From the sequence record NC_026014.1: DNA of 35,814 nucleotides; one strand, 5' to 3'. The notes below the pieces were generated by a model that ran no database searches, was not told where the DNA came from, and was given only the letters and a program-made list of their open reading frames with translations. Of this stretch, positions 108 to 34,736 are shown piece by piece; positions within the stretch are counted from its first letter, which is position 1, and the number at the start of each line of letters is the position of its first letter. Position numbers and translations under genes: made by a program. This DNA comes from Escherichia phage P88.

Positions 108-1139
108 TTATGGGCAATATCTGGACAACTCAGCCACAGGATTAAAGCGCACAGCATCCTGTAGATAATCCGGTGCAAAATGGGCATAAGTCATCGTCTG
201 CTGAATAGTGCTATGTCCAAGTATTCTCTGCAAAGTGATGATATTCCCACCATTAATCATGAAGTGAGTGGCAAAGGTATGCCGTAAAACATGTATCGAC
301 TGCCCTTCAGGAAGATCAGGCCTCACCTTTCTGATAGCAGCTCTGACAGCTGCATAACTTGGATAAATTAAACGACCAGTGGCCTTTGTTTTAATCATGC
401 ACTCCAGTTCTGACGATATAGGTATAACGCGACGCTTCCCATTTTTGGTTTCCATAAAAATGACTTTGCCGCTAATAACATGCTCCCCCTTGATATTTGC
501 AACCTCACTCCATCTTCCACCTGTTGCCAGACACAACAAGACGGCTTTTAATTCATCACCAGATAACAACTCCAGTAATCGTGGAATATCTTCATGATAC
601 AAATAAGCCATTTCAGGCTGTTTGATATTAAGTTTTTTCACATCATGAAACGGATTAGCCCCAGAATATTCCTCTGCGTCAATTAGTTTTGTGAAGAAAC
701 CACTCATCATTGCGCAATAACGATTAACCGTGGATTGTTTTATTCCGCGATTAAGCAACAATAACCGATAATTAATTATGTTCTTACGAGTAAGTTGGTC
801 ACTGCGTGTAACATTAATACTTTCAAGATCACTAATGACCGCAGAAATACGCACTCGCTCCATCGCACCGTAAGGATGATTTTTCCCGTGGTATAGCCAC
901 CAACAATCCAGCAACTCCCTCAGCGAGCGCCGTTCTGTTGGCTTATCAACCCAATCTTTGTCGTGGTAATGCTGCAATACATGACGCTCATACAAAACAG
1001 CCTCACCACGAGTATCAAATCGCCGCCTGAATCTCTTTCCTTCTGATCCAGCTGGCCGCACGTCCACACAAAATTTGCCATTAGCGAGCTTCTTAATCGA
1101 CATAAGGAAGCCCTCCAATGAAAACATCATCTTGATCAC
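108..1139 (-). CDS. int: Tyrosine site-specific integrase (P2 Int-like)
   Basis: 343 aa; C-terminal catalytic region HVLRHTFATHFMINGGNIITLQRILGHSTIQQTMTYAHF with the R..HxxR..Y tyrosine recombinase signature; sits next to the repressor as in P2. Confidence 0.95.
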   Translation of the reverse strand: MIKMMFSLEGFLMSIKKLANGKFCVDVRPAGSEGKRFRRRFDTRGEAVLYERHVLQHYHDKDWVDKPTERRSLRELLDCWWLYHGKNHPYGAMERVRISAVISDLESINVTRSDQLTRKNIINYRLLLLNRGIKQSTVNRYCAMMSGFFTKLIDAEEYSGANPFHDVKKLNIKQPEMAYLYHEDIPRLLELLSGDELKAVLLCLATGGRWSEVANIKGEHVISGKVIFMETKNGKRRVIPISSELECMIKTKATGRLIYPSYAAVRAAIRKVRPDLPEGQSIHVLRHTFATHFMINGGNIITLQRILGHSTIQQTMTYAHFAPDYLQDAVRFNPVAELSRYCP

Positions 1140-3887: not shown

Positions 3888-4087
3888 ACAAAAAGACCTG
3901 GTTTCGCGCATACATGTGGGCGCTGGTATGCGTCATCGTCTCTCTCATTCTGTATGCAGGACTACTCCCCCGAATGATTTCATCAGACAGCTCCTTCCTG
4001 GTATTGCTGGGCATTTTCATTGCCATGCTGTACCCGGCAGGCGTTGTTCGCCTTTTCAGTAAGTACATCAAGGAAATCAAACAATGA
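3884..4087 (+). CDS. Small two-TM membrane protein, likely partner of the downstream SPFH protein
   Basis: 67 aa with two hydrophobic helices (WALVCVIVSLILYAGLL and FLVLLGIFIAMLYPAGVV); stop overlaps the SPFH gene start. Confidence 0.6.
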   Translation: MNKKTWFRAYMWALVCVIVSLILYAGLLPRMISSDSSFLVLLGIFIAMLYPAGVVRLFSKYIKEIKQ

Positions 4088-4914
4088 AGAAATTCAAACT
4101 CTTTCAGATTCTCCCGCTTTTTGCCGCCATCCTGCTGGTTGGCTGCGATCGCGTTGAGCCAGGTAATGTGGGCATCAAAGTCAACAAGCTGGGCGACGAC
4201 AAAGGCGTTGGCGAAGTGGTTGGCGTTGGCCGCTACTGGACTGGCTGGAATACAGAGGTTTACATCTTCCCGACCTTCAAACAAATGAAGACCTACGATG
4301 AGCCGTTCAGCTTCCAGATGAGTGACGGCACAACCATCGGCTATCACATCGGCGTGGCTTACAAGGTTGATCCATCCAAAGTTACCACAGTGTTTCAGAC
4401 CTACCGCAAAGGCGTGGATGACATTACCGACACTGACCTGCGCCAGAAGATCGCCGATGCACTCAACCGACTGGCCAGCAAAATGACCACCGATAAGTTT
4501 ATCGACGGTGGTAAGTCTGAACTGCTGGATTCAGCACTTAAAGATATTCAGGAAGAGATGACCCCCATCGGCATTCAGGTCATGAGCCTCTCTTATGTCG
4601 GTAAACCGGAATATCCGCCAACCGTTATCGACAGCATTAACGCCAAAGTCACGGCAAACCAGAAAACCCTGCAACGCGAACAGGAAGTCAAGCAACGCGA
4701 AGCTGAAGCCAACATGTTGCGCGCAGAAGCTGCCGGACAGGCTGATGCCATTCGCACAAAAGCCCAGGCTGAAGCTGACGCCATTCGTTTACGCGGTGAA
4801 GCTCTGCGCCAGAATCCCGGCGTTATGGAGCTGGAAGCAATCAACAAATGGAACGGCACGCTGCCGCAATACATGACCAGCAATACTGCTGTTCCGTTTG
4901 TTCCGGTGAAGTAA
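4084..4914 (+). CDS. SPFH/Band-7 (stomatin/prohibitin/HflC-like) lipoprotein
   Basis: 276 aa; lipoprotein signal with lipobox LLVGC; SPFH-like core; Ala/Glu-rich C-terminal coiled coil typical of Band-7 proteins. Confidence 0.85.
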   Translation: MKKFKLFQILPLFAAILLVGCDRVEPGNVGIKVNKLGDDKGVGEVVGVGRYWTGWNTEVYIFPTFKQMKTYDEPFSFQMSDGTTIGYHIGVAYKVDPSKVTTVFQTYRKGVDDITDTDLRQKIADALNRLASKMTTDKFIDGGKSELLDSALKDIQEEMTPIGIQVMSLSYVGKPEYPPTVIDSINAKVTANQKTLQREQEVKQREAEANMLRAEAAGQADAIRTKAQAEADAIRLRGEALRQNPGVMELEAINKWNGTLPQYMTSNTAVPFVPVK

Positions 4915-5956: not shown

Positions 5957-8779
5957 ATGACGGCAGAGTACATCAGGGACTGGCAACAACCGCGCCACGC
6001 AGTGGGGCGTGAAGGAACGGGGATCCCCGCTCCTGAATCCGCGCTTTCCTCCTGGCTGGATGCCTACCGGGCAGAGAACGAGCGCCGCCAGGAAATGGCT
6101 GATGCGGCGTTCTCCGCCACGCCGCTGGGCAACCTGATTAATAAAAGCCTGGACGCACAGGAAAAACAGGACAAAACCATCACACTGGCAGGAGACGCCA
6201 GAAAACAGGCACGCGGCGCGGTGGATGAAGCCATGGCCTCGCTGCGCCTGCTGCCGTCCTATCTGCGCGATCCGCTTATTCGCCACCTCTCCTTCCTTCG
6301 CAAAAAACAGGAAGCCGATCGCCGGAAAGGCAAAAAGAGCTGGCAGGCGGAACGCTATGCACGCGGAACCCTGCGCAAAATATTCGAACGTCTGGATCGC
6401 ACTGACGGACGCTGGCTGACACCGGGTTATCGCTCCCTTGCCGGACGCGAACGCCTGGACGATTTGCTTTACCTGCCGCAGCTCAACAAACACCAGATAC
6501 AGACGCTGGCCACCATGACGGCAGCGATGTTCAGCAGCACCTTCGAAAAACTCTGCGATGGCTTTGGCGCGACTGATGGCGAACTGACCATGGATGTAAC
6601 GCTGAAGGCGTATCAGATGCTGGCCCGCATGGCGTTACACCTGCACGCTATGCCTCCACATTATGACGCACTGACAACAGACAAAGACCGGAGGAACGAA
6701 CCGGACACAGAGCTGCTGCCGGGCGCAATCCTTCGCCTGACCTGTGCGGAATGGTGGAAACGCAAACTGTGGCTGTTACGTTGCGAGTGGCGGGAAGAAC
6801 AACTCCGCGCCGCCTGTCTGGTTTCCAGAAAAACATCACCCTATCTGAGCCAGGACGCGTTAAGCGAGTTTCGCGCACACCGCGAGAAAACACGCGATTT
6901 CCTGAAAAGTTTCATGCTGGAAAATGAAGACGGGTTCACGATTGATCTCGAGACGGTGTATTACGCGGGAGTAAGTAACCCGGTTCACCGTAAGGCAGAA
7001 ATGATGGCCACCATGAAGGGGCTGGAACTTCTGGCCGAAGCCCGTGGCGACAGAGCGGTGTTTCTGACTGTCACCTGCCCGTCAAAATACCACGCAACAA
7101 CGGAGAACGGTCATCCGAATCCCAAATGGAACGGGGCCACCATGCGCGACTCCAGCGATTACCTGGTTAACACGTTTTTTGCGACGGTCCGCAAAAAACT
7201 GAACCGCGACGGTCTTCGCTGGTATGGCATCCGCACGGTGGAGCCTCACCATGACGGCACTGTGCACTGGCATATGATGGTCTTTGCACATCCGGACGAG
7301 ATTGAAACCATCGTGTCCCACGTCTGCGATATTGCCATTCAGGAAGACCGCCACGAGCTGGGCGATGATATTACTCCGCGTTTTAAAGCGGAGTACGTCG
7401 ACGGCTCAAAAGGCACGCCAACCAGCTACATCGCCACCTACATCGGAAAGAACCTGGACAGCCGCGCCGTGGATGGCATCGACCCGAAAACGGGCAAGCC
7501 ACGCGTTGACCACGAAACCGGAAAATCAATGGCCGAGAGCGTGGAGCGCGCCATCGGCTGGGCGCGCCTTCACCGGGTCCGCCAGTTCCAGTTCTTTGGC
7601 ATCCCCTCCCGTCAGGTGTGGCGTGAACTGCGCCGCCTTGCCAGCCAGATGGCACGCAACCCGGAAGGCCCGCAACGGCTGAAGGATGACGCAATGGATG
7701 CAGTGCTCGCTGCCGCTGATGCCGGGTGTTTTGCCTCCTACATTGAAAAACAGGGCGGCGTACTTGTTCCACGCCAGGACTACCTGATTCGCACCGCCTA
7801 CGACCTCGCAGATGAGCTGAACGATTACGGCGAACAGAGCGTACAGATTTACGGGATCTGGTCACCACTCATCGGGGAGTCTTCCCGTGTGTGCACACAT
7901 CCGGATAACTGGAAGCTGGTAAGACGTAAACCGGAAGCGGAAGACAGCGCCCGCGAAAATGGTTTTGACCTTCAGGGCGGCCCTGCCGCCCCTTGGACTC
8001 GTGGCAATAACTGTCCCCGTGTACAGGAAACGGACAACAACGGGACAGAACAGCCGGAAGAACGGCCAGCACCGTGGCCGCAGCTCCCTGACGGCGTTGA
8101 AGTGAACGAATGGATGCGCTCACTGAAACGGCACGAACGCCGGGCGCTGATGCGTTCGCTTCGTGACAAACAGGCAAAAAACAGCAGTGATGAAATGCAG
8201 AGCTGGACACAGAGCCGCAAACAGCAGCGGCCTTTGCCTGATAACCACGAATTACTCGCTAAAGAATGGCGGGAGTCTGCTGAATCTCTCGGCCTGCATA
8301 TCGGTGAACAACAGATGCAGCACCTGTTACGGGGCGGCAGTCTGTACGTTGACGGCAGCATCATTGCACCGCAGGGATTTGAAATTGTACGCAAACCGGA
8401 TACCCGCCCGGACAGCCGAATCACGCAGCTCTGGCAGCGCCTGAGCCGTAATCATGGCGTAAGCAGCACGGAGATCCGCCATAACCCGGTCGCCAGCTAT
8501 CTGGCACAGCTGGGGGCATCAGACCCTGAAGCCGCCGCACGCCTGGCATCCACACTTCAGCAGGACCAGAACACCATGAAAACACCCGTTACCGTGCTTT
8601 CTGACATGCTGCGCGCCATCCGCGACGCAGAGCACGCACAGAGAATCAGTGAAACCACTGAACGCGCCAGCCGCAAAGCAGACCTGCTGCGGGGTGGCCT
8701 GACCAGTGGAAACAAAAAACAGACAGAAACGGGACTCACGAATCCCGCAAATGAGCAAAAAACGCGCAGCGATATATGA
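5957..8779 (+). CDS. A: Rolling-circle replication initiator endonuclease (P2 gpA-like)
   Basis: 940 aa; HUH-type motif DGTVHWHMMVFAH and twin-tyrosine motif TPTSYIATYIGKN; long low-complexity C-terminal extension versus P2 A (761 aa). Confidence 0.9.
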   Translation: MTAEYIRDWQQPRHAVGREGTGIPAPESALSSWLDAYRAENERRQEMADAAFSATPLGNLINKSLDAQEKQDKTITLAGDARKQARGAVDEAMASLRLLPSYLRDPLIRHLSFLRKKQEADRRKGKKSWQAERYARGTLRKIFERLDRTDGRWLTPGYRSLAGRERLDDLLYLPQLNKHQIQTLATMTAAMFSSTFEKLCDGFGATDGELTMDVTLKAYQMLARMALHLHAMPPHYDALTTDKDRRNEPDTELLPGAILRLTCAEWWKRKLWLLRCEWREEQLRAACLVSRKTSPYLSQDALSEFRAHREKTRDFLKSFMLENEDGFTIDLETVYYAGVSNPVHRKAEMMATMKGLELLAEARGDRAVFLTVTCPSKYHATTENGHPNPKWNGATMRDSSDYLVNTFFATVRKKLNRDGLRWYGIRTVEPHHDGTVHWHMMVFAHPDEIETIVSHVCDIAIQEDRHELGDDITPRFKAEYVDGSKGTPTSYIATYIGKNLDSRAVDGIDPKTGKPRVDHETGKSMAESVERAIGWARLHRVRQFQFFGIPSRQVWRELRRLASQMARNPEGPQRLKDDAMDAVLAAADAGCFASYIEKQGGVLVPRQDYLIRTAYDLADELNDYGEQSVQIYGIWSPLIGESSRVCTHPDNWKLVRRKPEAEDSARENGFDLQGGPAAPWTRGNNCPRVQETDNNGTEQPEERPAPWPQLPDGVEVNEWMRSLKRHERRALMRSLRDKQAKNSSDEMQSWTQSRKQQRPLPDNHELLAKEWRESAESLGLHIGEQQMQHLLRGGSLYVDGSIIAPQGFEIVRKPDTRPDSRITQLWQRLSRNHGVSSTEIRHNPVASYLAQLGASDPEAAARLASTLQQDQNTMKTPVTVLSDMLRAIRDAEHAQRISETTERASRKADLLRGGLTSGNKKQTETGLTNPANEQKTRSDI

Positions 8780-8824
8780 AGCGCGCACAAAACAGGCAAA
8801 AACGGGATTTCAGAATCCCGTAAA
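8727..8824. promoter_or_regulatory. Two related palindromic sites upstream of parM (candidate parC-like centromere/operator)
   Basis: AAACGGGACTCACGAATCCCGCAAA and AAACGGGATTTCAGAATCCCGTAAA, each with CGGGA(T)/(A)TCCCG arms, about 70 bp apart, overlapping the 3' end of A. Confidence 0.3.
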
Positions 8825-8855
8825 CGATTAATTAATCAACATAAGGAAAAGCGAC

Positions 8856-9815
8856 ATGAAAATTTGTATCGACGACGGCTCCACCAACATCAAGCTGGCA
8901 TGGACTGAGAACGGCGAACGCCGCAACGCCATCAGCCCGAACAGCTTCAAGTCGGAATGGTCTGCGCCGTTCGGCGGCACGCAGCCCGCGAACTACATGC
9001 TTGATGGCGTGCGCTATGGTTTTGATCCGGTCAGCGATCGCTTTGTCCAGACGACCGACACGCAATACCAGTACAGCGATGTAAATGTCATTGCCATTCA
9101 TCACGCGCTGGTCAAATCAGGCATCACGCCACAGGAGGTGGATGTGGTTGTCACCCTGCCACTGAGCGAGTATTTCGACACAAACGCACAGCCGGACATG
9201 GCCAACATCAACCGCAAAAAAGCGAACGTTATGCGCCCGGTGGAGTACCAGAACGGCGAAGCATTCACTATCCGTAACGTGCGGGTTATGCCTGAATCCA
9301 TTCCGGCTGGCTTTAAAGCACTGGCTGACATGAGTCCGTTTGAATCCCTGCTGATTGTGGATTTAGGTGGAACCACGCTGGATGTGGCAAAGGTTCAGGG
9401 ACAACTGGCAGGTATCAGCCAGGTGTTTTGCGATCCACACGTAGGCGTTTCCCTGATGGCCGATGCAGTACTGTCGGTGATGGCCACTAACGGTATGCGT
9501 ACCAGTCACCACATCGCCAATACCATTATCGAACATCGCCATGATGAAGCCTGGCTGCGCCAGCACATCCACAATGACGCGCATTACGCCAGCCTGATGG
9601 CGGTTATTCGTGAAAAGGAAGAAACACTGAAACAACGCGTGATCCGCGCGCTGGCGGGTTTTTCGGGTTACGGGCGGGTGATGGTTGTCGGTGGCGGGGC
9701 GGAGATTGTGGCACCCGCTATCCGCGAAGCCTGCGGAGTTAATGCGACTTTCATCGCGGACGGGGTGCCACAGTTTGCTCTGGTTAATGGGCTGTACGCA
9801 ATGGACAAGGAGTAA
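8856..9815 (+). CDS. parM: ParM/StbA-like actin-type ATPase (type II partition motor)
   Basis: 319 aa; N-terminus MKICIDDGSTNIKLAW...ISPNSFKSEW co-linear with plasmid R1 ParM (MLVFIDDGSTNIKLQW...ISPNSFKREW, from memory); also QYSDVNV, IVDLGGTTLDV, VMVVGGGAE. Confidence 0.9.
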   Translation: MKICIDDGSTNIKLAWTENGERRNAISPNSFKSEWSAPFGGTQPANYMLDGVRYGFDPVSDRFVQTTDTQYQYSDVNVIAIHHALVKSGITPQEVDVVVTLPLSEYFDTNAQPDMANINRKKANVMRPVEYQNGEAFTIRNVRVMPESIPAGFKALADMSPFESLLIVDLGGTTLDVAKVQGQLAGISQVFCDPHVGVSLMADAVLSVMATNGMRTSHHIANTIIEHRHDEAWLRQHIHNDAHYASLMAVIREKEETLKQRVIRALAGFSGYGRVMVVGGGAEIVAPAIREACGVNATFIADGVPQFALVNGLYAMDKE

Positions 9816-9819
9816 ACCA

Positions 9820-10131
9820 ATGACGACACCAACCAGACGGATAAGTTTCTATCTGAAGCCCGCCGCCGTCAAGAACGAAGGCGAAGCATGCGCCTGGCTG
9901 GACAGCCTTACACCAGAAGCCCGCAAAAGCGGCCAACGTGTGGCTTTTCTGGCCGGGCTGGCACTTCTGAAAATGAATCCGGCAGAGGCTTACCGACTGG
10001 CTGCATGGGCTGACGATGAGGCGTTATCAGTGACACAAACCAGGACAGAACGCCCCGCGTCACAGCCAGTACCAACCACACAGATAACCAGTCGGATGGC
10101 CGGAAATATCAGGGCGTTATTTCCCGAATAA
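9820..10131 (+). CDS. parR: ParR/StbB-like centromere-binding adaptor
   Basis: 103 aa from the ATG 4 nt after the parM stop; RRISFYLKP...LDSLTP...RVAFLAGLALLKMNP parallels R1 ParR (RRTIAFKLNP...LDSIPQ...AALTAGLALYRQDP, from memory). Confidence 0.7.
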   Translation: MTTPTRRISFYLKPAAVKNEGEACAWLDSLTPEARKSGQRVAFLAGLALLKMNPAEAYRLAAWADDEALSVTQTRTERPASQPVPTTQITSRMAGNIRALFPE

Positions 10132-10194
10132 CACAACATCAGGGCGCATCCGCCCTGATGACTTTAATCCGGGAACATAAACAAGGGGGACACA

Positions 10195-10527
10195 ATGCAA
10201 CACATTGACAGAGAAAAAGCGCAGCGACTGATTGAGCGGATGGAAGCGCTGGCGAAAGAAGAAAATGTCAACATCCAAAAAATAGCTGAATGTGGCCAGA
10301 TAGTTCTTCGTCGTGAAAAAGACCTCAAACAACTGATGTCTGGCGAAACCAGCAAAACATGGACTTCAGGCGAGGAGACGATTTATTGCAGCTTCTGCAA
10401 TAAATCTCAGTACGAAGTCACAAAGGTGATTGCCGGACCGTCTGTTTACATCTGCAATGAGTGCGTGGATTTGTGCAATGAAATTATCAGGAGAGAAGTG
10501 ACAGACAAAAAGGGAAAAAACGCATGA
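10195..10527 (+). CDS. Small protein with C-terminal ClpX-type C4 zinc-binding domain
   Basis: 110 aa; C-terminal [39 protein letters not shown] has the C-x2-C-x18-C-x2-C spacing and roughly 80% identity to the E. coli ClpX N-domain as I recall it; no AAA+ module. Confidence 0.8.
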
Positions 10528-10862
10528 ACAGAAAACAAAAACAAGAGTTGAAATACTTTTTACGTAAAGAAATTGCCAGGCTTGAAGATGCAGAATCACA
10601 ATCATCAGAAATTCCGTTCGGAATGGATATCAACGACGCCCGTATGCTCCAGGCATACCGCATAGCTCAGGCTGCACTACAGGCAAAACCGTCAGATGGA
10701 CTGGTTAGAGCAGTACGATTCTATGAACTGGTAAAGCGTGAGAATCCGCCAGCCGAAACCGGAGCATGGAAAGACGCTGTTGACTGGGTACTCAAAGAGG
10801 CTTGTCAGGTTGTAAACACTGGCATCAAAGGAGACCTAGCCCAGCCTGCATCAAAGCTATAG
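10524..10862 (+). CDS. Hypothetical protein, last gene of the cargo cluster
   Basis: 112-aa ORF overlapping the previous stop; followed by a terminator. Confidence 0.55.
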
Positions 10863-10900: not shown

Positions 10901-11353
10901 AATGCACAATAGTGCACAAATTTGCACAATTTTTTTGAACGAATTTTTGCCCTTCCGGCCCGCGTGACAGTTGGATCCGTCAAGGATCCGTGCGTGCACA
11001 AAAAAACGCGCTTTTTCTGCGCGCAGGTGACGGGGGAACAGCCCGCGTTTCAGGGGGTAAATAGCGTTCCCTTAACGATGTCGCAGCGACACGACAGAAT
11101 GGCCGTATTTCTCACGCTGAGCGTGAAAAATACGTGAGGGATTCTGGTTTGATGGGGTGAAAGGTAAGGCCGTCAAAATCGCACTGAGGCGGCGAGAACA
11201 TGCAGTCAGCGCAGTGGGATTGCGTAAGAATCTGACCGTCGATGATGGCAATAAGCAGGAAAGCGTCGTGAAATTATCTGACTGATACAGGAGCTGGAGA
11301 GTCGGGGCATAAATTTTTTATGCCCCGGCGAAGCAGCAGACAAGCGAAGCGCG
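10901..11353. other. Putative cos / packaging region
   Basis: About 450 bp non-coding gap just beyond the 3' end of portal gene Q, where cos lies in P2; three TGCACAA repeats, a GGATCCGT direct repeat and a 10-bp perfect hairpin near 11306..11328. The cohesive-end sequence itself was not identified. Confidence 0.35.
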
Positions 11354-12400
11354 TCAGGATGTGGGCTGGGTATCTAACAGTGCGTAAGGGTTAAAGCGGA
11401 TCACCTCTTCGCCAAGCCAGTCATTGATGTGCTTCATGGCCTCCATGACGGGCATCAGCTCGTTAATTGCGTAAACCCGCGCGGCCTTCTCCACATCACC
11501 AAACGCACTTTTTTCGCCCGGCATCGCCCCCATCAGTTGCGGCGGAACGCGGTGCGCAGCCAGCACATCATCACGGGATGCCGCCTTAACATTCATGAAC
11601 TCATCCTTTGCGGTGATCTGCTGGAACGGCAAAATTTGCACCCCCTCTTTGCCCCCGTTGGGCGCATGAATGAGCACGTTTTTAAACGCACCACCACCAC
11701 GTGCCCCCTGTAGCGTTTCTTTCAGGGAGTCCATGCTTTCGCGGTTTACCTGCGCTGCACCGATGTAGATGATGCACCCGGCGTGGGATCCGTTGTCGTA
11801 GTACAGTTTTCTGAACATGTCCGCCGAATGAGAAAGGCTGGCCGAGAGTAATGCGCCAAGATATTCCGGCATGCCGTAGATTTCCTGGTTAATATCCGGA
11901 TTCATCAGGTGGCACACTTTGCCAGGACGAAACTGAAACGCGTCCTTGCCATCCTGCACATACCACCATGATTCAAGATCGCTTCCGCGTCGCATGTATT
12001 TCGCCAGGGCGTGCCGTAATTTAAGCGGTTCGCCGAGCATATTGCTCCGAAGCTCAAGGAATGCGTTACCGAACACAAACCAGTCCAGCGCCAGCGCCGA
12101 GAAATCCTGCCGGGAAAGCAGCGGGTGCGGAATATAGCAGCCGAGCAATACATTGCGCTTAAAGTAAAGCGCAGACTGATGCCAGGACGTTTGCCGGGCA
12201 GCTCTTGCCAGACCGTACCAGTCCACCGGGGTTTCATACCACCGCCCGTTATCAGCACAGTACATATTGTCCAGCAGGTCATGCCCGGTCAGGCGATAAG
12301 GCCCATCAAATGTGAATGCACTGAGCGATGATTCTTTCCTGAGCGCATCAGCGAGATCAATGCGTGAACTCATGCGCACTTTTTTATTTTTTCTGCTCAT
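11354..12400 (-). CDS. Q: Portal protein (P2 gpQ-like)
   Basis: 348 aa, P2 Q-like size; divergent from the O-N-M-L operon and immediately downstream of P, as in P2. Confidence 0.93.
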   Translation of the reverse strand: MSRKNKKVRMSSRIDLADALRKESSLSAFTFDGPYRLTGHDLLDNMYCADNGRWYETPVDWYGLARAARQTSWHQSALYFKRNVLLGCYIPHPLLSRQDFSALALDWFVFGNAFLELRSNMLGEPLKLRHALAKYMRRGSDLESWWYVQDGKDAFQFRPGKVCHLMNPDINQEIYGMPEYLGALLSASLSHSADMFRKLYYDNGSHAGCIIYIGAAQVNRESMDSLKETLQGARGGGAFKNVLIHAPNGGKEGVQILPFQQITAKDEFMNVKAASRDDVLAAHRVPPQLMGAMPGEKSAFGDVEKAARVYAINELMPVMEAMKHINDWLGEEVIRFNPYALLDTQPTS

Positions 12401-34475: not shown

Positions 34476-34736
34476 ATGTTCCGTTGTCCGCTTTGTGGCG
34501 CATCTGCCCGTATCCGCACCAGTCGTCCGGAAAATGATTCAAACACCGTGCGGCAAAAGTATTACCAGTGTAACAACCTGGAATGCGGCGTATGCTTCTC
34601 AACACTGGAAGCTTTCCATAAATTTACATCGAAACACGCCTCCGGCGTTCACTCATCAGAAGGTATCCCATGGCATGATCTGCCAGCTTCACACAGGGGA
34701 AACAATCAGATGAGTTTGCCTTTACCTCAGAATTAA
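34476..34736 (+). CDS. ogr: Late transcription activator Ogr/Delta family (zinc finger)
   Basis: N-terminus MFRCPLCGASARIRTSR...YYQCNNLECGVCF matches P2 Ogr (MFHCPLCQHAAHARTSR...YHQCQNVNC...) with the C-x2-C ... C-x4-C pattern. Confidence 0.88.
   Translation: MFRCPLCGASARIRTSRPENDSNTVRQKYYQCNNLECGVCFSTLEAFHKFTSKHASGVHSSEGIPWHDLPASHRGNNQMSLPLPQN

Follow-up and report, generated by a model that had tools for sequence, protein, structure and literature searches.

What might a phage do with a free-standing ClpX-type zinc-binding domain (ZBD), carried as a single small gene with no AAA+ module? This question is raised by a gene for a 110-aa protein within the window, by which we mean the whole 35,814-nt stretch of DNA analysed here (Escherichia phage P88, NC_026014.1). 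We examined the genomic setting and architecture of this gene, the distribution of its relatives and its divergence from ClpX, and weighed the modes of action that these observations suggest.

Genomic setting and domain architecture

The window was a complete P2-type, P88-like prophage, with PhiR44_2 as the closest isolated phage (97% identity over the cargo region) and P88-like (Xuanwuvirus) phages as its other relatives. The backbone included an integrase gene (108-1139, minus strand), followed by profile matches to an HTH_3 C-type repressor and then Cox, and by an early-operon gene for a 276-aa SPFH/Band_7 protein (4084-4914), which was likewise observed in one related locus (L009). The cargo slot was bounded on the left by the replication endonuclease gene gpA (5957-8779, plus strand) and on the right by the portal gene gpQ (11354-12400, minus strand), with gpP next to gpQ and likewise on the minus strand. 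Also present were the late genes, gpD and an Ogr gene (34476-34736; PF04606, E=5e-14). The window having its own Ogr, and the ZBD protein matching PF06689 only, we rejected the idea that the protein is a substitute for the P2 Ogr/Delta activator.

The ZBD gene was found as described in the original prediction, an ATG-initiated open reading frame of 110 codons at 10195-10527 on the plus strand, and it lay in the slot between gpA and gpQ, after parM (StbA; 8856-9815) and parR/stbB (9820-10131), both directly on its upstream side and on the same strand. The start of the following gene, ORF2 (10524-10862, plus strand; 112 aa), overlapped the stop codon of the ZBD gene (ATGA). ORF2 and gpQ were separated by some 490 bp of non-coding DNA, and we take this to be where P2-type phages carry cos. 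The GC content of the ZBD gene was 0.41 vs 0.55-0.60 in its flanks (gpA and parMR), a dip that fits cargo inserted into a phage backbone, and the cargo found between gpA and gpQ is usually of a defence or other accessory kind (PMC9122126).

A Shine-Dalgarno sequence (AAGGGGGA, 10183-10190, plus strand) was read directly from the sequence 4 nt ahead of the ATG. Between parR and the ZBD gene we observed a GC-rich hairpin with a 10-bp stem and no U-tract (10137-10160, plus strand), which was kept in relatives and had a predicted dG of -26 kcal/mol including an outer stem (z -4.7); it may be an attenuator, a processing element or an RNA-stability element. A terminator-like hairpin with a T-run (10912-10935, plus strand) closed the rightward transcription unit after ORF2. 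A consensus scan found no sigma-70 promoter upstream of the ZBD gene, the sole site being weak and inside ORF2. Since no promoter of its own was found, expression of the gene would be explained most simply by read-through from parMR or early transcripts. No LexA box (CTG-N10-CAG) was present within 200 nt upstream in 15 representative loci, and SOS control was rejected on this basis. The gene had also been linked to the lysis-lysogeny decision, for which neither a LexA box nor an upstream promoter of its own gave evidence.

The partition pair deserves mention in its own right, as a full ParM/ParR (StbA/StbB) system (8856-10131) sits here inside an integrase-bearing P2-type prophage. Two 42-nt direct repeats (8713-8754 and 8786-8827, 79% identical) were observed, one in the 3'-terminal part of gpA and the other just upstream of parM, each containing an ACGGGAnT...AATCCCGT palindrome. 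These repeats are candidates for the parC centromere or the ParR operator of the prophage ParMR system. ParMR was present too in P88-like phages without the ZBD gene, and about one quarter of P2-like phages carry a partition system and could perhaps be kept as plasmids (Rousset et al. 2022, PMC9122126).

A Pfam profile search matched zf-C4_ClpX (PF06689) at residues 64-99 with 64.5 bits (E=8.2e-18; cutoff 27 bits), covering positions 2-38 of the 39 in the profile, and no other Pfam family was matched. The top matches among solved structures were the E. coli ClpX ZBD entries 1ovx (E=2e-19) and 2ds5 (E=6e-19). Over the 40-residue core (residues 63-102; 10381-10500, plus strand), 31 residues (77.5%) were identical to E. 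coli K-12 ClpX, in line with the figure of about 80% given beforehand for the ClpX N-domain. The zinc ligands C65 (10387-10389), C68 (10396-10398), C87 (10453-10455) and C90 (10462-10464) had the ClpX spacing, CxxC-x18-CxxC, and were invariant across all family members. The AAA+ module was absent, with TIGR00382 (cutoff 370.75 bits) reaching 50.2 bits and matching ZBD positions 6-52 only, and the ClpX equivalog models as a group gave 49-50 bits against cutoffs of 359-371. Judged by these scores, the 110-aa protein is not a ClpX unfoldase orthologue (TIGR00382 / PRK05342), and the original prediction of a ClpX-type C4 domain without AAA+ was borne out.

The AlphaFold2 monomer model had a mean pLDDT of 80.3 and contained helices at residues 6-23 and 27-48, strands at 78-80 and 85-87, and a helix at 88-109. 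The predicted ZBD superposed on 2ds5_A with an rmsd of 0.7 Å, a target-normalised TM-score of 0.88 and 75% identity (Foldseek), and the ZBD fold, two beta-hairpins with a C-terminal helix, is predicted to be present in the phage protein. The domain had earlier been labelled a zinc ribbon. This label does not fit, as the ClpX ZBD is a treble-clef zinc finger, a classification reportedly made by Donaldson et al. in 2003.

The helical N-terminus, predicted to be unrelated to ClpX, corresponded to a two-helix hairpin (residues 6-23 and 27-48; 10210-10338, plus strand) that was defined from the AlphaFold2 model and alignments, and its relatives were confined to the family. A phmmer search of 1.84 billion representative proteins with the N-terminal 61 residues returned 12 matches, of which all but one, a repeat protein of low identity, were members of the family or fragments. 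Foldseek searches with the whole model found no fold match to the hairpin in PDB or BFVD, the ZBD part alone being matched. By these searches the hairpin is an orphan, family-specific domain, and its Cys33 was nearly invariant in the family alignments. A linker (residues 53-59; 10351-10371, plus strand) joined the two domains. It had pLDDT values below 50 in the model, varied in length and sequence among family members, with indels, and showed a dN/dS of at least 1 wherever synonymous changes permitted an estimate.

Distribution of the family and divergence from ClpX

The ZBD protein matched PHROG 6797, a family annotated as function unknown, over its full length (E=1.5e-58), with residues 1-106 aligned to positions 5-107 of the 107 in the profile, and in RefSeq it is named 'ClpX C4-type zinc finger protein'. 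An arrangement given as 'StbA + Plasmid_stab_B + zf-C4_ClpX + hypothetical', including WP_001163784, is listed in Table S5A of Rousset et al. 2022 (PMC9122126) and was not among the systems tested in that study. The gene is thus already catalogued, as a Pfam domain, a PHROG, a RefSeq name and an entry of that table. The literature that we searched contained no characterisation of any phage free-standing ClpX-type ZBD protein, so that the original statement on the lack of a characterised precedent stands for the literature, with the addition that databases do catalogue the gene.

Of 5426 complete E. coli genomes, 112 contained the gene at 95% identity or more (megablast), and relatives were found in at least 221 using the ZBD part as a blastn query, at 128 chromosomal places and 105 on plasmids. 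The family is common: roughly 4% of the complete E. coli genomes carry a relative, among them O55:H7, O145 and O111 pathotypes. A scan of genome contigs was dominated by genuine clpX genes and yielded no further family members.

We compared 90 loci and observed the gene in three settings, namely P2-like phages, phage D6, and phage-plasmids of about 110 kb. In P88-like prophages the ZBD gene followed parMR. The other P2-like carriers comprised Salmonella loci (L004-L008) together with L009, L051/52, L066, L067, L069/70 and L075, and their gpA and gpQ were 31-92% and 30-90% identical, respectively, to those of the window. Among P2-like carriers the ZBD gene was always located between gpA and gpQ, and the neighbours on either side differed. 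In phage D6 and the phage-plasmids (about 108-111 kb) it was located amid Ead/Ea22-like genes. A Salmonella member of 128 aa was 100% identical in two P2-like backbones (L004 7900-8500 and L005 7880-8500) whose gpA proteins were 59% and 36% identical to that of the window, and a copy of one REP-like palindromic repeat (about 80 nt) flanked the gene on either side. Because an identical protein occurs in two backbones between REP-like flanks, this gene behaves as a mobile unit and looks like a single-gene cassette.

Short proteins (65-150 aa) containing only the ZBD, with different extensions or none, were observed in several phage contigs (L071-L074, L078, L080, L081), and a 65-aa ZBD-only protein of Pseudomonas phage PP9W2 was present in BFVD (A0A9E7CCK4). 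Free ZBDs therefore recur in phages. Several large phages encoded full-length ClpX (L076, L082-L090). A further group of metagenome and genome proteins (136-182 aa; P0031, P0061, P0085, P0116) carried the ZBD at the N-terminus, together with a conserved C-terminal HTH-like segment (GVSWxRIGEALGxxxQxAWERFSGE).

We then listed each position of the domain for 14 distinct P2-type sequences, using ClpX numbering without the initiator Met. All or nearly all of the 14 retained the zinc ligands, Y13, S15, F16 and V24, and also I28-A29-G30-P31-S32-V33-Y34-I35, E38, V40, D41, L42, C43, I46 and I47. The groove residues F16 and I46 of ClpX, which correspond to F67 and I97 of the phage protein, were among those conserved. 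A further set of positions (G18, H22, E23, R/K25, L27, D37 and D45) is invariant or nearly so in ClpX and was changed or variable in the phage family. D37 was replaced by N in all 14 sequences, G18 by N in nine, H22 by Y in eight and R/K25 by T in six, while L27 was replaced by V or I, and E23 was variable. D45 was replaced by E in eight of the 14, a position at which ClpX itself has D or E. The D6-type subfamily had further changes (P31D/E, S32N, D41K, L42D, D45N), by which the groove itself was remodelled. The charged positions round the groove being altered, the phage domain may not share the ligand specificity of ClpX.

One E. coli lineage of the gene was marked by Y85C, at the position of ClpX Y34, which adjoins the third zinc ligand. 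The carriers were the O55:H7 strain CB9615 (L002, 6001-6333) and L016, L017, L021, L024, L025, L032 and L034. The CB9615 copy additionally had C94S, and Y85C appeared independently in a distant member (L075, 5496-5867).

Pairwise comparisons with diverged members gave dN/dS values of 0.1-0.5 in both the hairpin and the ZBD, by which measure this is a real gene under purifying selection. At the nucleotide level the core was identical to E. coli clpX at 78 of 120 positions (65%), with the same codon used at only 12 of the 31 identical residues, and blastn (E<=0.01) matched no host clpX in the 5426 genomes. These three observations ruled out a recent capture of host clpX, as the synonymous sites are scrambled. 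Among 41 distinct ClpX ZBD cores of beta- and gamma-proteobacteria (from the genes L093-L172), 34-40 of the 40 residues were identical to the E. coli core. The phage core reached 30-31 of 40 at best against the same cores and was the most diverged sequence of the set. Since Proteobacteria hardly differ in their ClpX ZBD, identity to 'the host' is uninformative. The phage copy was equally distant from the ClpX of Vibrio, Halomonas and Burkholderiales, and we rejected the idea that it tracks host ClpX. By this comparison the phage domain is a faster-evolving paralogue of the ClpX ZBD, and its mimicry of ClpX is looser than first apparent.

Possible modes of action

The ZBD protein is probably a homodimeric mimic of the ClpX ZBD, with the family-specific hairpin attached through a flexible linker. 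The ClpX ZBD is a constitutive dimer on which SspB, RssB and lambda O dock (PMC7804408, PMC7226468). F16 and I46 of ClpX form a hydrophobic pocket for trigger factor that overlaps the sites for lambda O, SspB and RssB, and lambda O is not degraded by ClpX without its ZBD (PMC7804408). Such a truncated ClpX also fails to carry out RssB-mediated sigma-S turnover, while ssrA-tagged substrates are reportedly still degraded (PMC7226468). Purified free ZBD added in trans at 5-20 µM inhibited RssB-mediated breakdown of sigma-S by ClpXP in vitro (PMC7226468 Fig. 1d), and this took a molar excess of about 8- to 30-fold of ZBD over ClpXP (PMC7226468).

As free ZBD inhibits in trans and the groove of the phage domain is intact, the simplest reading is that the protein acts as a competitive decoy for ZBD-dependent recognition by ClpXP. 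We hold this reading tentatively, giving it somewhat less than an even chance of being right. In such a mechanism the phage domain, with the ClpX fold and hydrophobic docking groove that it is predicted to retain, would bind XB-type motifs of adaptors (SspB, RssB, UmuD), substrates that require the N-domain (lambda O, MuA), or both, and would keep them off ClpXP. Degradation that does not depend on the N-domain (ssrA-type) would be left intact, and the decoy would be selective, given that ZBD-less ClpX still degrades ssrA substrates. The hairpin would probably contribute specificity or avidity. Candidate substrates that may be affected are sigma-S, UmuD', ClpXP-labile antitoxins and the MuA/Mu transpososome.

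A decoy is supported by the conserved groove pair F67/I97, by purifying selection on both domains and not on the linker, and by an amino acid identity to ClpX that persists despite 65% nucleotide identity. The architecture was also kept in P2-like phages whose gpA was only 31-60% identical, in D6-type loci and in the phage-plasmids of about 110 kb. Against a decoy, the phage ZBD lay further from ClpX than ClpX orthologues lie from each other, and the charged rim carried D37N, G18N, H22Y, R/K25T and a variable E23, with P31D, L42D and D41K in the groove of D6-type members. These substitutions suggest that the partners of the phage domain may differ from those of ClpX. The molar excess of ZBD required for inhibition in vitro likewise counts against a decoy, as does the failure of the consensus scan to find a promoter belonging to the gene.

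A wider claim would be that temperate enterobacterial phages carry a natural dominant-negative ClpX docking domain, which blocks adaptor- or N-domain-dependent ClpXP activity and spares ssrA quality control, with the hairpin setting target specificity. We regard this as possible and lean towards doubting it. If true, sigma-S, UmuD' or ClpXP-labile antitoxins might be stabilised, or ClpX-dependent phages such as Mu might be excluded, and the protein would be the first viral inhibitor that mimics the substrate-recognition domain of a bacterial AAA+ protease. Action on MuA would make it an exclusion factor, fitting the gpA-gpQ hotspot, which is otherwise mined for defence systems. A decoy would also provide a compact natural tool for separating N-domain- or adaptor-dependent from direct ClpXP recognition, and would represent a new prophage route to reprogram the regulated proteolysis of the host, through which the stress response, SOS mutagenesis, the turnover of antitoxins and competing phages might be affected.

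The reading that survives best beside the decoy is that the domain has been reused for a purpose unrelated to ClpXP. It would then be a zinc-stabilised module for dimerisation or binding, and the protein would regulate a phage or host target by means of its hairpin and diverged charged rim, for example as a small regulatory or anti-defence protein. The ZBD does occur in other non-AAA+ architectures, such as the 136-aa ZBD and HTH-like proteins (P0031, P0061), and the rapid divergence from ClpX, the changed surface charges, the altered groove residues of the D6-type subfamily and the usual defence or accessory content of the slot all agree with reuse. The hydrophobic groove, however, was almost intact in all P2-type members across deep divergence, and no DNA-binding or enzymatic domain was matched in Pfam, NCBIfam (where the protein matched nothing beyond the ZBD) or PADLOC. 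On balance we consider reuse fairly unlikely.

A direct action on ClpX itself seems to us unlikely. Here the phage ZBD would form heterodimers with the ZBDs of freshly synthesised ClpX subunits or dock on the ring, placing the hairpin on the unfoldase, where it would block N-domain function in a dominant-negative manner or recruit a new substrate as a built-in adaptor. A second conserved domain on a flexible tether is the layout of an adaptor rather than of a plain decoy, the ZBD is a constitutive dimer, and the residues of its beta-hairpin and C-terminal helix (V40, D41, L42, C43, I46, I47) were almost fully conserved. However, high stability and formation in cis within the hexamer have been described for ZBD dimers, self-association of the hairpin, if any, would favour homodimers, and D37N was invariant in the P2-type members.

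A partnership with ORF2, in which the two genes would form a toxin-antitoxin or defence pair with the ZBD protein controlling ORF2, is highly improbable. The overlap of stop and start codons suggests translational coupling, the two genes sit in a known defence hotspot (PMC9122126), and both were present in 29 of the 43 P88-like loci compared. ORF2 was nevertheless absent from the other 14 (L037-L050), from the other P2-like members (L004-L009, L051-L075) and from the D6-type loci, and the recombination junction with ORF2 fell exactly at the stop codon of the ZBD gene. Defence models (PADLOC-DB 2.0) gave no match for the ZBD protein and, for ORF2, a best match of E=0.013 to PDC-M28C; ORF2 belonged to PHROG 26213/660 and had no Pfam or PDB match. 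As the two genes were not co-conserved, we rejected a conserved toxin-antitoxin or defence pair, and with ORF2 missing from so many carriers, the ZBD gene behaves as a single-gene module and ORF2 is not its partner. Separately, about 140 nt in the 3' half of ORF2 (about 10695-10835) had 88-93% DNA identity to genes of unrelated phages, among them the T7-like PAS61 and ZX5 and the lambdoid mEp460 and 18-1-2, and judged by this identity the segment is a small module moving between phage families.

Finally, a decaying, functionless fragment of a captured clpX would agree with the short length, the low GC content and the mosaic region, but it is refuted by the evidence of selection in both domains, alongside a frame intact in at least 221 genomes and in deeply diverged phages, a strong Shine-Dalgarno sequence and the scrambled codons at 65% nucleotide identity to clpX.

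Comparison with known systems

The closest known relative of the phage domain is the E. coli ClpX ZBD (1OVX, 2DS5-2DS8, PF06689), with an identical C4 spacing, 31 of 40 residues in common, a fold predicted to lie within 0.7 Å, and a shared groove (F16, A29-I35, L42, I46, I47). Unlike it, the phage protein is phage-encoded and free-standing without AAA+ and adds an orphan hairpin, with D37N in every P2-type member, changed or variable residues at G18, H22, E23 and R25, and 65% nucleotide identity. The isolated recombinant ZBD is the same domain alone, and in vitro it titrates RssB and blocks the delivery of sigma-S (PMC7226468); earlier work from the Houry laboratory, as cited in PMC7804408, also used an isolated ZBD as a competitor in trans. 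That ZBD is a laboratory construct, whereas the phage protein comes from a naturally occurring gene under selection, has an additional domain and differs in its charged rim.

The anti-adaptors IraD, IraM and IraP are likewise small proteins, and they stabilise sigma-S by acting on adaptor delivery and not on the protease; IraD and the ZBD have been proposed to share one site on RssB (PMC7226468). There is no kinship of sequence or fold, as the anti-adaptors bind RssB by unrelated folds and the phage protein would mimic the docking domain of the unfoldase. Among phage proteins, T4 PinA and T7 gp4.5 act against Lon. The T5 protein 'Gp00X' drives the degradation of RpoS by ClpXP, according to a meeting report (PMC11806420). 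These three resemble the ZBD protein, should it act on ClpXP, in being small phage proteins that retune the regulated proteolysis of the host, but they are unrelated in sequence and none copies a protease domain. PHROG 12435, PHROG 5259, the 65-aa PP9W2 protein and the 136-aa ZBD and HTH-like family differ from the ZBD protein in their extensions, where they have any, and share with it a ClpX-type ZBD that stands without AAA+.
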